DNA from: Bacteroidota bacterium
GTDB lineage: Bacteria; Bacteroidota; Bacteroidia; Chitinophagales; BACL12
Length of the DNA stretch: 64,000 nucleotides
Assembly (NCBI GenBank): GCA_016706865.1
Contig: JADJIS010000002.1
Span: forward strand, 484,419 to 548,418
Reading direction: 5' to 3'
In this document: positions 2,513 to 63,983 of the stretch, piece by piece
Numbering within the stretch: position 1 is the stretch's first letter
Layout: each line of letters begins with the position of its first letter
Made by a program: the position numbers and the translations under genes
The notes under the pieces: generated by a model
What the model was told of the DNA's origin: nothing
Database searches by the model: none
Seen by the model: only the letters and a program-made list of their open reading frames with translations

Positions 2513-3139
2513 ATGAAATTCCTGTTTACAGTATTCTGCTTATTGATGTCTGTAATGCTCATCGACTGCAGAAACCCAACTATAAGTCCTGAAGAAACAA
2601 AACCTGCTGTTAATGTTGATTCCACACGTATAAAGGCAGCTGAAGCACTTGAATATTGTAAATCGAAAAAATTTAATACTGATTTTTGTATTTTGATTGA
2701 TATGAGTTTGCATTCCGGTGTTAAACGCTTTTTTGTTTGGGATTTTACAAAGGATACCATCAGTTACAGTTTTTTGGTGGGTCACGGATGTTGCAACAAT
2801 GCCTGGAGCAGCGATCAATCAAAAGAAGACCCAACCTTCAGTAATGTGGATGGAAGTCATTGCTCCTCCCTTGGAAAATACAAGATAGGGGAAAGAGCTT
2901 ATACTTATTGGGGAGTAAAAACAAAATATGTATTACATGGATTGGAAAGTACCAATAGTAATGCACTTTCCAGATATATCGTCTTCCATTCCTGGGAGGC
3001 AATTTCAGATGTGGAAGTGTATCCAAATGGCACACCTGAAGGCTGGGGCTGTCCTGTGATCTCCAACAACAGTTTCACTACTCTTGACCCAATATTAATG
3101 GCGGTAAAAAAACCTGTGCTTATGTGGATATATAATTAG
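2513..3139 (+). CDS. L,D-transpeptidase catalytic-domain family protein (YkuD_2-like), secreted
   Basis: N-terminal signal/lipoprotein-like peptide (MKFLFTVFCLLMSVMLIDC). The pattern FVWDF...SFLVGHGCC...GSHCSSLGKYKIGE...LHGLESTNSNA...IVFH is typical of this family. Confidence 0.7.
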   Translation: MKFLFTVFCLLMSVMLIDCRNPTISPEETKPAVNVDSTRIKAAEALEYCKSKKFNTDFCILIDMSLHSGVKRFFVWDFTKDTISYSFLVGHGCCNNAWSSDQSKEDPTFSNVDGSHCSSLGKYKIGERAYTYWGVKTKYVLHGLESTNSNALSRYIVFHSWEAISDVEVYPNGTPEGWGCPVISNNSFTTLDPILMAVKKPVLMWIYN

Positions 3140-3142
3140 ATA

Positions 3143-3204
3143 TAGGACACGGGACACGGGACACGAGACACGAGACACGGGACACGAGACACGAGACAAA
3201 AGAC
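3143..3204. repeat. heptanucleotide tandem tract (CGGGACA/CGAGACA, 8 units plus a partial one)
   Basis: Begins 4 nt after the TAG at 3137-3139 and reads taggaca cgggaca cgggaca cgagaca cgagaca cgggaca cgagaca cgagaca aaagac, in perfect 7-nt register. Confidence 0.9.
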
Positions 3205-7920: not shown

Positions 7921-8987
7921 GGATTGTTTTTAATTAGATCTTTTATCAAAGGAATAATTTTTTCAACCCCTTGTAATATGGGCAATAGCACAGGAATTTT
8001 TAATTCGTTTTCATATTGTCTTTGATAAGATATTGCTTCTTCTTCACTGCATAATTCTGTATTTAATGCAAGTGCGATCACCTTGGAGCCATACATATTT
8101 ATCAATGCAATTTCTGAGGATACATCAGGAATTTCTCCCCATGCAATATCATGTTCGTAATATTTTCTTTTTGGAGCATGTACTAATATTACGTTTTTCG
8201 CATTTCCCGATATTAATAATTCTGAACCGCAAGGTCCACTGGGATTCCGTAATGCGGATTGACCTTCTACTAATATTATTTCAGCCTTTGTTTCTTTCCA
8301 GCAGGAAACTATCGCATGTTCCAATTCGCCGGAAATAAAATCATTTAAGGTGGAATCAAAAATAAAACCGTATTTACCCCCCTGTAACCAACCTGTTTGA
8401 CCGGTATAGATCATTTGTGCATTAATATTATCCGCCTCACAGGCCTGACGAATAAGTCTGCATGTTGTGCGTTTACCCATGGCACAATCTGTTCCTATCA
8501 CCGCAATTATAGGTGCATCAACAGAATAAATTTCTCCGGTCCAAAAATGAAGGTCTTTTTTATTTTTTGGTTTTCGAACATCTATCAATTCCACCTGATA
8601 TTGTCTTGCCAATAAAACCAATTCAGGTATATCAGAAAGATATTCATGAAGGCCGTTTACAATATTCATTTTCTTGCTTATACAATCCTCCATAATTGGG
8701 TTAAAACTTTTTGGCAAAATTCCTCCAACCGTGGCTATACCGATTATGCAATAACGGATATCCGGTATCGACTCAAATGCAGTTTTTACTTCACTAAATA
8801 TTGGTATATTTCTTTTTTTGCCATCCAGCACCTCGCCTGCATCTTTTCCGGCATGAACGGCGTCAATTATTCCAACAATATCAAATCGTTCGCTGCCGCG
8901 AATTAAACCATGTGCAGTTTTCGCATCCGATTCGTGCAACATGCCGGCAGTTAATACTATGGCTTTGGGTTTGTTAATATTATTCAA
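7917..8987 (-). CDS. DUF1611 family protein (DgcN-like putative D-Glu N-acetyltransferase)
   Basis: 356 aa. The N-terminal pattern KAIVLTAG...AKTAHGLIRGSERF.IVGIID and the central GTDCAMGKRTT P-loop-like segment are typical of DUF1611. This family is usually paired with an enolase-type epimerase, as it is here. Confidence 0.7.
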   Translation of the reverse strand: MNNINKPKAIVLTAGMLHESDAKTAHGLIRGSERFDIVGIIDAVHAGKDAGEVLDGKKRNIPIFSEVKTAFESIPDIRYCIIGIATVGGILPKSFNPIMEDCISKKMNIVNGLHEYLSDIPELVLLARQYQVELIDVRKPKNKKDLHFWTGEIYSVDAPIIAVIGTDCAMGKRTTCRLIRQACEADNINAQMIYTGQTGWLQGGKYGFIFDSTLNDFISGELEHAIVSCWKETKAEIILVEGQSALRNPSGPCGSELLISGNAKNVILVHAPKRKYYEHDIAWGEIPDVSSEIALINMYGSKVIALALNTELCSEEEAISYQRQYENELKIPVLLPILQGVEKIIPLIKDLIKNNP

Positions 8988-59057: not shown

Positions 59058-59954
59058 ATGCAAAAGATTCTGATAACAGGTGGTTCGGGTTTGATAGGAC
59101 GGCGTTTGACCGAAATTTTAGTGGCGGGAGGTTACCACATAAATTGGTTGAGCAGAAGTAAAAAAACGATACCCGGTGTTACTGTTTTTTTGTGGGATAT
59201 TGATAAGGGATTTTTGGAAGAAAGTGCTTTTAGTGGGGTGGATGTTATTATTCATTTGGCCGGAGAGGGAATTGCCGACGAAAGATGGACAACATCCCGA
59301 AAAAAAATGATCATTGAAAGCAGAACAAAAAGTACGGATCTCCTGATAAAAAAACTACGTGAAATTCCCAATCAGATAAAAACCGTTATTTGCGCATCTG
59401 CGATCGGGTTTTATGAAACTAATGCCAATTCCATAATAAATGAAGAAAATAAGTCGGGAACAGGGTTTCTCAGCGAATCGGTTTCTATATGGGAAAGCAG
59501 CACTAAAAATTTTGAAACTCTACCAATAAAACTCGCCACTATTCGAATTGGAATTGTTTTATCAAAAAAAGGTGGCGCCTATAAAGAATTGATCCAAACA
59601 AAGCCCATGGGAATATTACCCCTTATGGGAAATGGCAAACAAATTTATTCGTGGATTCATATTGACGATGTTTGTGGTATTTTTTTATTCGTTTTGGAAA
59701 ATAAACTTCATGGAATATTTAATGCAGTTGCCCCTAATCAGGTCTCCCAAAAAACAATAATGCAAACAGTAAAAAAGTATTCCAAAGGATTTCAAATAAT
59801 TGTTCCGGTTCCTGCTTTTGGATTAAAATTGATTTTAGGCGAAATGAGCAATGCAGTTTTAAATTCTCAAAAAATAAGCGGCGATAAAATAATTAACGCA
59901 GGTTATAAATTTAAATTCCCGAACATCGAAGATGCGATCAATGATCTGGAATGA
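59058..59954 (+). CDS. TIGR01777 (YfcH-like) NAD-dependent epimerase/dehydratase family protein
   Basis: ILITGGSGLIGRRL Rossmann motif and a C-terminal DUF1731-like GYKFKFPNIEDAINDL. Confidence 0.9.
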   Translation: MQKILITGGSGLIGRRLTEILVAGGYHINWLSRSKKTIPGVTVFLWDIDKGFLEESAFSGVDVIIHLAGEGIADERWTTSRKKMIIESRTKSTDLLIKKLREIPNQIKTVICASAIGFYETNANSIINEENKSGTGFLSESVSIWESSTKNFETLPIKLATIRIGIVLSKKGGAYKELIQTKPMGILPLMGNGKQIYSWIHIDDVCGIFLFVLENKLHGIFNAVAPNQVSQKTIMQTVKKYSKGFQIIVPVPAFGLKLILGEMSNAVLNSQKISGDKIINAGYKFKFPNIEDAINDLE

Positions 59955-59967
59955 GTAATGAGTTATG

Positions 59968-59994
59968 CCCGCCCGAAAGACCCGGTCGGACGGG
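59968..59994 (+). terminator. GC-rich hairpin after the stop codon (weak terminator candidate)
   Basis: CCCG-c-CCGA ... TCGG-a-CGGG, 14 nt after the TGA. No T-run follows; the heptamer tract does. Confidence 0.3.
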
Positions 59995-60023
59995 AGTATT
60001 GAGTTTGTTCCTACTCGGATTAA

Positions 60024-60183
60024 AACCCAGAACCCAGAACCCAGAACCCAGAACTCAGAACCCAGAACCCAGAACTCAGAACCCAGAACTCAGAACCCAG
60101 AACCCAGAACCCAGAACCCAGAACTCAGAACCCAGAACCCAGAACCCAGAACTCAGAACTCAGAACTCAGAACCCCGAACTCA
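60024..60183. repeat. 22 perfect-register heptamers (AACCCAG x14, AACTCAG x7, AACCCCG x1) plus a partial unit
   Basis: Counted unit by unit from 60024 to 60177 with no indels. The final partial unit aacTCA supplies the complement of the vWA gene's TGA stop codon (60181-60183). Confidence 0.95.
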
Positions 60184-62148
60184 TTTATTCGCCGCAAGCC
60201 CTGTGCAAGTTTTCAGCATATTGATAAAATCTTCGCGATAACCGTAGGTATCTAAACCTCTGGCTGAATTTGCCAATTTAATTGCCTCTTCATAGGTAGC
60301 ATCTCCTTTATATTCGCTGTCTCTTAATATCATTCCAAATTCAATTACTGCACTCGCAAAACGGAAATTATCACTTGTGGATGCCAATGGAATAGCTTTA
60401 GAGGAAAGTGATTTTTCTATTAATTTACTTGTTTCACTATTAGGTGCCTTGAATCTCAATTTTAATGTCATGATCTCATCGGTGTTGTATGCATTTTTGT
60501 TTACTTCGGTGGTTTGATATTTTAAAGTTTCACCAGATGGTTTTTCATTGGAACCACTTGGTTGATATTGATTTGCACGTAATTTAATTTCATACATTGC
60601 GGTAACGCGATGTCCTGCACCGAGTTCACCGGCATCTTTTGCATCGTTATCAAAATCTTCATTATTTAAAGTTCTGTTCTCATAACCGATCAAACGATAT
60701 TCTTCAACCAAAGCAGGATTAAATTCGATCTGAATTTTTACATCTTTTGCAATGGTAAATAGGGTTCCGCGCATATCGGTAGTAAATACTTTTTTTGCTT
60801 CTTTTTCATCGTCGATATAATAGTAGGCGCCATTTCCATTATCAGCAATGGATTCCATTTTACTGTCTTTATAATTTCCTAAACCGAATCCACATATCGT
60901 TAAAAATACCCCGGTTTTTCTTTTTTCTTCTACAAGGCGTGTCATTTCCGCATCGCTGCTTGTGCCAACATTAAAATCGCCATCTGAACATAAAATAACT
61001 CTGTTATTTCCTTCCGGTATTAAATTTTTTACTGCTATATCATAAGCGAGTTTTATACCTGCACCACCTGCGGTACTTCCACCGGCTTCGAGATTATTTA
61101 TTGCGTCTTTTATTTTCTGTTTATTTGAGCAAGTTGTGGATGGTAAAACTTCTCCTGCGGCACCTGCATATACTACAATTGCAACTCTGTCTTTTTCATT
61201 TAAATTATCTATCAATGAAATTAAAGAATGTTTAACGAGTGGTAATTTATTGGGATCCTGCATACTGCCACTTACATCAATTAAAAAAACAAGATTGGAT
61301 GCATCGGCTTCAGAATAATCAATTTCCTTTCCCTGTAATCCAACCATAATTAATTTTGTTGATTTATTCCAGGGACATTCACTCATTTCATAATTAATGG
61401 AAAATGGATCATTGCCTTTTGGTTTGTTATAGGTGTAATCAAAATAATTCACCATTTCTTCAATACGCACAGCATCTTTTGGAGGAACTTGTCCGTTATT
61501 AATAAATCTGCGGATATTAGAATAGGATGCATTGTCAACATCAATGGAAAATGTAGATAAGGGATTGCCGATCACCTTTTTAAAAATATTTTCATTTATG
61601 GCATTATAGGATTCTGTATTAAAATCGGGCCCATAATCGGCTTCAATTCCCTCATAAGTGGCATCAGCCATATAGATTTGGCCAGAATAACTTTGATTTG
61701 CTTCTACTTTTTTGTAGCTTTTATCTTCTCTTTTTTGCGGTGAAATTCCTGTTTCCGAATCCTCTTTTTCCCTGATTACCATTTCCTCTATTATGATCTC
61801 CGTTTGTAATTTAACATCCAATTTTAATTGATCATTATTTTTTAATTCTATTTTTTTCTCTACCAAAACATAATTTTCTTTAAAGAATGTTATTTGATAT
61901 TTATCCGCTTCCAGATTTGAGAAAATATAATTTCCCAAAGAATCGCTTGTAGTTTCCGTTTTTCCCTTTTCGGATTTTATTTCAATAGTTGCATTGGCGA
62001 TAGGATTGCCAAAATCAACATCCGTAATTACACCACTAATGGTTGCAGTACCCGTCAATGGCAATGAATTGTTTTTTTTGCCTCCGGCGATAATTATTCC
62101 GGTGAGCAATAAAATTGTAACTCCCGAAAAAAGAATGATCCTTTTCAT
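60181..62148 (-). CDS. von Willebrand factor type A domain protein (YfbK-like) with an N-terminal CarboxypepD_reg-like domain
   Basis: MIDAS motif VFLIDVSGSM. N-terminal ISGVITD...PIANATIEI beta-sandwich. C-terminal DUF3520-like region. Confidence 0.88.
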   Translation of the reverse strand: MKRIILFSGVTILLLTGIIIAGGKKNNSLPLTGTATISGVITDVDFGNPIANATIEIKSEKGKTETTSDSLGNYIFSNLEADKYQITFFKENYVLVEKKIELKNNDQLKLDVKLQTEIIIEEMVIREKEDSETGISPQKREDKSYKKVEANQSYSGQIYMADATYEGIEADYGPDFNTESYNAINENIFKKVIGNPLSTFSIDVDNASYSNIRRFINNGQVPPKDAVRIEEMVNYFDYTYNKPKGNDPFSINYEMSECPWNKSTKLIMVGLQGKEIDYSEADASNLVFLIDVSGSMQDPNKLPLVKHSLISLIDNLNEKDRVAIVVYAGAAGEVLPSTTCSNKQKIKDAINNLEAGGSTAGGAGIKLAYDIAVKNLIPEGNNRVILCSDGDFNVGTSSDAEMTRLVEEKRKTGVFLTICGFGLGNYKDSKMESIADNGNGAYYYIDDEKEAKKVFTTDMRGTLFTIAKDVKIQIEFNPALVEEYRLIGYENRTLNNEDFDNDAKDAGELGAGHRVTAMYEIKLRANQYQPSGSNEKPSGETLKYQTTEVNKNAYNTDEIMTLKLRFKAPNSETSKLIEKSLSSKAIPLASTSDNFRFASAVIEFGMILRDSEYKGDATYEEAIKLANSARGLDTYGYREDFINMLKTCTGLAANK

Positions 62149-62273: not shown

Positions 62274-62422
62274 CTAGTGACTTGTGACCTTGGGTGAATA
62301 GTGAATAGAAGTGAGTATGATCCTCTAAGCATTGAAGCTATGGATATAGGCTCTAAACTTTTTTTCCGAGTCGAAGTATACTCACCACTCACTACTCACC
62401 ACTTACCACTCCCCACCTCACG
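62274..62422. repeat. two heptamer-periodic tracts in inverted orientation (xxGTGAx versus xTCACxx)
   Basis: Left arm 62274-62322 reads tagtgac ttgtgac ... tagtgaa tagaagtgagtat. Right arm 62376-62422 reads gtatactcaccactcactactcaccacttaccactccccacctcacg. AGTGAGTAT and ATACTCAC(c) are complementary. Confidence 0.7.
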
Positions 62423-62433
62423 ATTTCGGTGCT

Positions 62434-62462
62434 CAAAAAAAAAGACCCTTTCGGGCCTTTCT
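62434..62462 (-). terminator. intrinsic terminator
   Basis: On the minus strand: AAAGGCCC-GAAA-GGGTCTTT followed by a 9-nt T-run. It lies 22 nt after the stop at 62484. Confidence 0.85.
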
Positions 62463-62483
62463 AAAATATTATTCTTTAATTAA

Positions 62484-62822
62484 TCAATCCAAAAGCATAT
62501 CAATAAATACCAGATCGCCACCAACGTCTTTGGCTTTGCGAACGGTGTCCCCTTCGTGGGAAACAACAATTCTGATTACAATATCGTCGCTACCTCTTGC
62601 CATTAAATACATAGGCTCGCCTATCGTAGCAAAAACATCTTGTTTCCAAGAGCCTTTTTGGGCATAAACGGTCTCTGGAGTTCCGTCAGCTCTTAAAAAA
62701 GTTACATCAAATTCATCACCGGTTACACGGTAAGTGATCTTTTTTGTGTCTGGTAATACTTCTTCATTACAAGCCTGGAATAGAAAAAAACTAGCTATCA
62801 AACACAGAATTAAATTCTTCAT
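62484..62822 (-). CDS. small lipoprotein, unknown function
   Basis: Lipobox LFQAC. 112 aa. Confidence 0.6.
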   Translation of the reverse strand: MKNLILCLIASFFLFQACNEEVLPDTKKITYRVTGDEFDVTFLRADGTPETVYAQKGSWKQDVFATIGEPMYLMARGSDDIVIRIVVSHEGDTVRKAKDVGGDLVFIDMLLD

Positions 62823-63906: not shown

Positions 63907-63983
63907 TAGGACGTAGGACATAGGACGTAGGACGTAGGACATAGGACATAGGACATAGGACATAGGACATAGGACATAGGACT
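63907..63983. repeat. 11 tandem heptamers (TAGGACA/TAGGACG)
   Basis: Counted from 63907 to 63983 in perfect register. Same unit as the tracts at 716 and 2155. Starts 11 nt upstream of the ATG at 63896. Confidence 0.95.

Follow-up and report, generated by a model that had tools for sequence, protein, structure and literature searches.

Cyanobacterial STRR sequences, described by Mazel et al. in 1990, are reportedly tandem heptanucleotides dispersed in non-coding DNA and of unknown function. The defined STRR units are CCCCAGT, TTGGTCA, and CAACAGT, and their hosts are heterocystous cyanobacteria. Two later papers (PMC4679880, PMC4692102) cite Mrazek (2007) for the view that prokaryotic long SSRs are most often heptanucleotide repeats, which arise by polymerase slippage. 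Rehm et al. (2015; PMC4692102) described GGGAATC and GGGGA(C/T)T repeats in Xanthomonas and Nostoc that form G-quadruplexes (G4) in vitro. They closely follow stop codons, on the sense strand, and differ greatly from one close relative to the next; no function has been demonstrated for them (PMC4692102). MacGregor (2015; PMC4679880) described TAACTGA and mixed heptamer arrays in Beggiatoaceae, Cyanobacteria, and some Bacteroidetes, with indels in 7-nt steps between strains and draft contigs that end in arrays; the Bacteroidetes carry long mixed intergenic arrays that are missing from the orthologous gaps of close relatives. In Haemophilus influenzae, heptanucleotide repeats in the hmw1A and hmw2A promoters are SSR contingency loci (PMC8262952).

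The array analyzed here lies in a 64-kb stretch of DNA (64,000 nucleotides; referred to below as the window) from a Chitinophagales bacterium. Positions 60024 to 60177 consist of 22 complete heptamers in register, with no indels. On the plus strand, 14 of these are AACCCAG, 7 are AACTCAG, and 1 is AACCCCG; this is the tally given in a preliminary description of the locus, and both the sequence and TRF (60024 to 60180, period 7, 22.4 copies, 92% matches, 0% indels, score of 258) return the same count. The following unit, AACTCAT (60178 to 60184), is in register with the array and is the 23rd. As the preliminary description had also proposed, it supplies the TGA stop (TCA on the plus strand, 60181 to 60183) of a minus-strand gene. 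That gene (60181 to 62148) encodes a secreted vWA protein of 655 aa, identical to MBK7567246.1, with an N-terminal CarboxypepD_reg domain and vWF_A, VWA, and YfbK_C domains. Since YfbK_C profile positions 1 to 182 of 184 are matched, up to residue 649 of 655, we conclude that the vWA gene is complete. On its sense strand, the array reads as TGGGTTC and TGAGTTC units. Homologues of the vWA protein carry Chitinophagales names; the G+C content of the window is 34.6%, and its genes are ordinary chromosomal genes, including those for T9SS-tailed proteins.

A plus-strand gene encoding a 298-aa epimerase/DUF1731 protein (59058 to 59954) converges on the vWA gene. The ORFs that border the gap end at 59954 and 60181, and the array (60024 to 60180) is outside coding sequence. 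The array had been said to fill this convergent gap; it does lie there, and it occupies 157 of the 226 bases (~69%). The TGA stop of the epimerase gene begins a two-unit mini-array, TGAGTAATGAGTTATG (59952 to 59967, plus strand), with the units TGAGTAA and TGAGTTA; this unit type is that of the long array found in two relatives (L004 and L126, below). A G+C-rich stem-loop (CCCG.CCCG / CGGA.CGGG) is present after the epimerase gene, as previously noted. It sits at approximately 59964 to 59998 and has no U-tract on either strand, so it does not have the structure of an intrinsic terminator (G+C-rich hairpin plus U-tract). A promoter/terminator scan of both strands of 59955 to 60180 returned no terminator-like site. 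Rfam gave no match at the gathering threshold in the window and none in the gap at an E value of 1 or below.

Elsewhere in the window, a textbook hairpin followed by a T-run, AAAGGCCCGAAAGGGTCTTTTTTTTT, lies at 62437 to 62465 (minus strand) after a 112-aa gene; it is kept in four other assemblies (L005, L209, L210, and L211) and was missed by the terminator scan. We conclude that this genome does use intrinsic terminators and that the vWA and epimerase genes lack one. The 112-aa ORF itself (62484 to 62822, minus strand) lies between the NMO and vWA genes, has no Pfam match, and is conserved and syntenic in the same four assemblies and in L004. Two independent short-read contigs with an identical epimerase, L001 (4715; ENA SPAdes) and L002 (1008; Logan), stop at the same base, corresponding to window position 59967; the G+C-rich hairpin comes immediately after it, and the array begins 57 nt further on. 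Either population heterogeneity (a graph branch) or a drop in coverage at this point is suggested by the shared end.

We found 11 period-7 arrays (531 nt) in the 64-kb window and none in block shuffles at the same threshold, which excludes chance. Among periods 2 to 13 other than 7, there was one small period-4 array only; three period-14 arrays were also called, 14 being a multiple of 7. The period-7 arrays use at least five unrelated units. A TAGGACA-family array (716 to 780) begins with the TAG stop (716 to 718) of a pseudouridine synthase ORF (113 to 718), the stop opening the series TAGGATT TAGGACA. An ATAGGAC-family array (2150 to 2188) begins a few bases past the TGA stop of the ORF at 1616 to 2146. 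A third array (3143 to 3198), of TAGGACA and then CGGGACA/CGAGACA units, begins 4 nt past the TAG stop of the ORF at 2513 to 3139. Its GACACGG/GACACGA stretch (3145 to 3198) alternates between GGG and GAG as the vWA-side array does, which points to transitions of the middle G in a G-run that are spread by slippage. An ACTCACC/ACTCACT array (62380 to 62421; GGTGAGT on the minus strand) lies between the 112-aa gene and the vWA start, and a TAGGACA/TAGGACG array of 10.9 units (63907 to 63982) runs up to 10 nt before the start of the NMO gene. On the NMO sense strand, each GTCCTAT unit of the latter array makes an AUG.

Four CTCCTTT arrays (857 to 1352) are nested in a larger 104/182-nt repeat. 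That repeat (791 to 1455) has 104- and 182-nt units in 2.6 to 2.8 copies that are 95 to 96% identical, and each unit holds a block of four CTCCTTT heptamers, GTATCAG/ATCAGGA heptamers, and a conserved AAAACAAACGGTGGGATTTGGTAAAATTTCGCAAGAAATTTAAA segment. It occupies most of an 897-nt gap between two plus-strand genes and has no Rfam match. TAGGACA/ATAGGAC is a dispersed unit, found at 716 to 780, 1083 to 1100, 1262 to 1282, 2150 to 2188, 3143 to 3149, and 63907 to 63982; unlike it, the AACCCAG array occurs once in the window.

Of the 42 gaps that separate called ORFs by 40 nt or more, 5 hold a period-7 array. These five, together with the array at 63907 to 63982 (past the last ORF), cluster at both ends of the window. 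The genes that adjoin the sister arrays are housekeeping genes, encoding pseudouridine synthase, a PNPOx-like protein, L,D-transpeptidase, and NMO. Close relatives whose vWA protein is 84 to 85% identical had 2 to 4 period-7 arrays per 2 to 3 kb. A relative with a 78% identical vWA protein (L005) had none in 14 kb, and 80 loci from more distant relatives had 6 in 480 kb. A metagenome scan with the vWA protein recovered relatives of 70% identity or less throughout, which served as the heptamer-poor background and not for allele comparison. We conclude that the period-7 excess is specific to a clade, present at vWA identities of at least 84% and absent at 78%. The tract is thus an instance of a genome-wide, clade-specific property, with heptamer arrays in several gaps, that the preliminary description had missed, and not a peculiarity of the vWA-epimerase pair.

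The unit itself is widespread. Arrays of (AACYCAG)4 occur in at least 120 stretches from many phyla, with hosts that include Chitinophagales, Bacteroidales, Opitutales, Planctomycetota, Nitrospirota, Vibrio/Photobacterium, and Nostoc/Anabaena. They are pure C, pure T, or mixed, and among the matches listed more than half are pure AACTCAG, without GGG. Gene contexts among these matches, by crude ORF calls, were -|- for 21, +|+ for 16, +|- for 10, and -|+ for 6; we saw no rule of orientation relative to flanking genes across the 120 loci listed with this crude ORF calling, and approximately 31 arrays fell inside crude, possibly spurious ORFs. Very long arrays of 23 to 46 units occur at L011 (7 to 328), L025 (4848 to 5008, reverse strand), L115 (5079 to 5267), and L117 (90 to 271). 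L011 is a Pirellulaceae MAG in which the array is followed by TCATTCC heptamers, and L025 is Photobacterium rosenbergii. Across the listed AACYCAG loci we counted 249 period-7 arrays, belonging to 76 unit types; arrays of other periods were few.

We considered and rejected the idea that AACYCAG is a special, horizontally spread unit. In viral contigs the target heptamer was found in 8 stretches, compared with 4 and 24 for two composition-matched controls, so that matched heptamers are about as common there; the host loci listed also carry 74 other unit types. We conclude that period 7 is special and that the AACYCAG unit is not. G4 formation as a unifying principle was rejected as well, since G3 runs are missing from most sister and orthologous arrays. 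A CRISPR-like or mobile element was dropped because the array has no spacers, inverted repeats, or associated genes.

Across relatives, the corresponding gap, read in the sense direction of vWA, showed turnover of unit number and unit type and a fixed stop codon. From the stop, the window array reads TGAGTTC GGGGTTC (TGAGTTC)3 (TGGGTTC)3 and onward. One relative (L128, GCA_043727235.1; vWA 84% identical) has 5 units and then unique sequence, and another (L127; 85%) has approximately 2.4 units after the stop. Two others (L126, 85%; L004, 84%) carry approximately 17 to 20 units of another heptamer, TGAGTAA/TGAGTGA/GGAGTGA. In L005 (78%), no array follows the stop (TGAGAGTTCAGAGC...). In all relatives, L005 included, the vWA protein ends with K at one shared codon (...AANK, ...AENK, or ...ASTK before the stop), and where an array is present it opens with the vWA TGA. 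Hence, the vWA stop codon is older than the array, whose units keep register with it. A like arrangement, with a stop codon as the first triplet of the first unit, is seen at 716 to 718, 59952 to 59954, and 60181 to 60183 of the window, at 7963 to 7965 of L004, and at 2341 to 2343 of L126; the units opened in this way are TAGGATT..., TGAGTAA..., and TGAGTTC.... Among the AACYCAG matches listed, a gene stop lies inside or in register with the last unit at L057, L060, and L109, which are from unrelated genomes, as well as in the window.

An exact look-up of the window's vWA protein gave no record, and within the species we therefore compared alleles from members of the vWA protein cluster in four further assemblies (L209, L210, and L211 among them) with flanks 97.7 to 99.0% identical to the window. 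Counted in register from the stop, the window allele has 23 units. The allele on a 625-kb contig (L209, GCA_016708595.1) also has 23, with one G-to-A change relative to the window; this is 1 substitution in 154 nt of array (0.65%), compared with 1.4% divergence in the flanks. A k127 short-read contig that reaches the far flank (L210) has 18 units, five fewer, and a TAAGTTC variant, and L211 has an extra (duplicated) GGGGTTC unit and at least 24 units, with a scaffold N-gap inside the array; L210 and L211 are short-read or scaffolded assemblies, and their exact unit counts may be imperfect. In L003 (vWA 99% identical), the unit order is that of the window until the contig ends. The TAGGACA array upstream of NMO has approximately 11, 7, 11, and 10 units in the window, L209 (985 to 1250), L210 (967 to 1257), and L211 (974 to 1257), respectively; L004 lacks it. 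Strains of the species also differ by one unit in a TCACGNN mini-array. From the differences at these three arrays, we conclude that whole-unit slippage is probably active in the species. This supports the earlier suggestion of repeated slippage or gene conversion: strains vary in whole units and in single G/A (C/T) substitutions, the TAGGACA array ranges from approximately 7 to 11 units, and relatives carry 2 to 5 units or a different heptamer. The equal unit number of L209 and the window indicates that the vWA-side array is not extremely unstable and could be under length constraint.

The tract showed every property of a heptanucleotide long SSR for which we tested. It is an uninterrupted head-to-tail repeat of a unit in the 5- to 11-nt range and exceeds chance (0 arrays in shuffles). 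It belongs to a genome with many such arrays, period 7 being dominant (in the window and the close relatives checked). It varies by whole units among strains, with the caveat that the two large-contig assemblies are equal in count. Our preferred reading, to which we give a probability of roughly 70%, is that it is a heptanucleotide SSR (a "long SSR" in Mrazek's sense) produced by slippage and unequal exchange in a heptamer-prone Chitinophagales lineage. Replication slippage and unequal exchange would create and maintain the array in a genome unusually prone to period-7 expansion. The array may have been seeded on, or have grown up to, the TGAGTTC heptamer that opens with the vWA stop, and it would extend away from the vWA gene into the convergent 3' gap, where changes of length are presumably tolerated. 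G-to-A (C-to-T) transitions in single units, spread or lost by slippage, could then produce the irregular C/T pattern. The two converging transcripts would be affected, if at all, only incidentally, and the array would be nearly neutral. Counting against simple neutrality, arrays occupy only 5 of 42 gaps and are clustered at the window ends.

A possible but unlikely alternative is insulation: the array would act as a strand-asymmetric element at the 3' ends of the converging vWA and epimerase genes and shield them from each other. G-quadruplexes or a G.U-rich rod formed by (GGGUUCU/GAGUUCU)n would protect or define the 3' end of the vWA transcript, and (AACCCAG)n on read-through epimerase RNA would load Rho in the manner of a rut site and end transcription before antisense RNA of vWA is made. 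The physical properties of the two strands make this conceivable. Two canonical G-quadruplex motifs, the first of the form G3N4 x4 (60026 to 60049) and the second at 60096 to 60119, lie on the minus strand, the vWA sense strand, and are the only canonical G3N1-7 x4 motifs in the window; with the gquad option, ViennaRNA placed one predicted G4 in the MFE structure, for a gain of only ~1 kcal/mol. The vWA-sense array RNA (GGGTTCT/GAGTTCT) is predicted to form a G.U-rich rod (MFE of -52.6 kcal/mol, z = -5.9), and the plus-strand array RNA is predicted to be unstructured (MFE of 0 kcal/mol, z = +2.7). C makes up 39% and G 14% of the array's plus strand; its C-G value ranks at the 99.4th percentile among 78-nt windows, and its composition is that of a rut site (at least 70 to 80 nt of C-rich, G-poor, unstructured RNA), a likeness in composition only. 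The gap has no canonical intrinsic terminator for either gene, the two large-contig assemblies agree in unit number, and the G3N4 heptamers of Xanthomonas and Nostoc, which lie less than 50 bp after stops on the sense strand, form G4 in vitro (PMC4692102).

However, these properties are not conserved at the locus. The orthologous TGAGTAA-type array (L004 and L126) has no G3 runs, and its other strand is not C-rich; L127 and L128 have 2 to 5 units, and L005 has none. Most other arrays of the window (TAGGACA, CTCCTTT, and ACTCACC) lack G3 tracts, as do the more than half of the listed AACYCAG arrays elsewhere that are pure AACTCAG, and the gene contexts of the listed AACYCAG arrays are mixed. 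Moreover, no regulatory role emerged for the repeats that Rehm et al. studied (PMC4692102). Because the proposed properties are absent from the orthologous TGAGTAA array and from the sister arrays, we retain insulation as a rival and not as the main reading. The strong predicted asymmetry of the transcripts is compatible with a function, and a terminator or roadblock role for the array is weakly suggested; we found no evidence for a role as a dedicated regulatory device.

It is improbable that the arrays serve as binding sites of a DNA- or RNA-binding protein particular to this lineage, or that a dedicated enzyme makes them, although either would explain a shared period of 7 without a shared sequence and the persistence of arrays in the same gaps. 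The period is indeed constant while the units differ, the same gaps hold arrays of different units in species whose vWA proteins are 84 to 85% identical, and the arrays cluster in few gaps, several of them in stop-codon register. In Nostoc, deletion of a heptamer repeat altered a promoter read-out, and a binding partner was proposed (bioRxiv 10.1101/2022.06.06.494920). On the other hand, the units found in one clade (TAGGACA, CTCCTTT, GACACGR, ACTCACC, AACYCAG, and TGAGTAA) are too diverse for one sequence-specific binder, no candidate protein was identified, the phenomenon spans many phyla, and slippage alone accounts for whole-unit change.

A more speculative proposal, which we regard as similarly doubtful, starts from the stop codons: the arrays of this clade would nucleate there, through a lineage-specific peculiarity of replication or repair, and be kept as modules that act as a 3'-end backstop and insulator. 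The stop-codon register of several arrays, here and at L057, L060, and L109, hints at a rule beyond random slippage, a point against our preferred reading. If the proposal were true, stop-containing units would, with 7 not being divisible by 3, bring a stop codon into each of the three frames over 21 nt. One strand would yield structured, G4-prone RNA and the other unstructured, C-rich, Rho-loading RNA, and the array would combine a translational backstop with a transcriptional insulator between converging genes.

The preliminary description had raised the prospect that changes in copy number shift the C terminus of the vWA protein. As a phase-variation contingency locus, the array would shift the vWA frame or C terminus, or switch expression, through its unit number. 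Seven is not divisible by 3, the vWA protein is of a secreted or surface type, and unit number is polymorphic within the species, all as such a locus would have it. Yet the array is wholly downstream of the stop, and lies neither in the ORF nor between promoter elements. The first unit opens with the stop triplet itself, beside unique coding sequence, and no allele or species, not even the array-free L005, has the stop at another codon. The vWA protein is 655 aa in every allele examined, whatever the unit number, as it is in all full-length cluster members with such alleles. Were the stop lost, the next in-frame TGA would be only 6 codons on, and the sister arrays adjoin housekeeping genes. 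We conclude that the array leaves the vWA protein unaltered and that a phase-variable C terminus is largely refuted; a contingency locus of any kind is very improbable here. Finally, a mis-assembled or artificially expanded repeat can be dismissed: short-read contigs (L001, L002, and L003) do break in or beside the array and the L211 scaffold has an N-gap inside it, but the array and its unit order recur in assemblies made independently, from different samples and with different assemblers, and the 625-kb contig (L209) has an identical unit count and flanks.

Together, these data indicate that the tract is a real, ordinary, polymorphic microsatellite of the slippage type, anchored at the vWA stop and one of many in its clade. 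Alone, it matters little, as one more intergenic heptanucleotide microsatellite among many. In practice, short-read assemblies of this abundant wastewater lineage break at such arrays, and the arrays are ready-made strain markers of the VNTR type. The clade-specific burst of period 7 and the stop-codon register are a mildly interesting residue. They offer a clean natural contrast of modest conceptual value, which bears on the old question of why seven bases is the favored period of prokaryotic long SSRs.

The tract belongs to none of the GGGNATC, TAACTGA, or STRR unit families. It resembles STRR sequences as a tandem heptanucleotide of the kind dispersed in a genome's non-coding DNA, and differs from them in unit (AACCCAG) and host (a Chitinophagales bacterium). 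With the hmw1A and hmw2A repeats it shares a 7-nt unit, slippage-driven change in unit number, and a position beside a surface-protein gene; those repeats, however, lie in the promoter, 5' of the gene, and tune expression, whereas the vWA array is 3' of the stop and cannot change frame or promoter. MacGregor's arrays are similar in that they are intergenic and sometimes long, several heptamers share one gap in Gramella, Aequorivita, and Elizabethkingia, close relatives lack them in the orthologous gap, draft contigs end within them, and strains differ by 7-nt steps. Most TAACTGA sets, in contrast, lie just upstream of starts in forward orientation, and the vWA array follows a stop in a convergent gap and has another unit.

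The likeness to the repeats of Rehm et al. is closer in position. One strand carries G3N4 units, with at least four consecutive G3 tracts and short loops in the two minus-strand motifs; the G-rich strand is the sense strand, less than 50 bp after a stop, the array starting at the vWA stop itself. Neither set is associated with a gene class, and both vary strongly in length and sequence among close relatives at the same intergenic site. The unit here is GGGTTCT/GAGTTCT and does not fit their consensus (GGGNATC/GGGGAYT), there are 22 units where theirs number preferably 4, and the GAG units, one third of the total, break the G-tracts. In addition, G4 formation is here a prediction from sequence, and the sister and orthologous arrays are not G4 capable. 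The stop-codon register of several arrays is not pointed out in the heptamer-repeat accounts that are compared here. Likewise, the uncultured activated-sludge Chitinophagales lineage is not among the hosts of long SSRs in what those accounts relay of the survey by Mrazek, Guo, and Shah (2007). From the long SSRs of that survey, as they are relayed, the tract shows no difference in kind: it shares with them head-to-tail heptamers beyond chance, an intergenic position, many arrays per genome with period 7 dominant, whole-unit variation among strains, and a patchy distribution among lineages.
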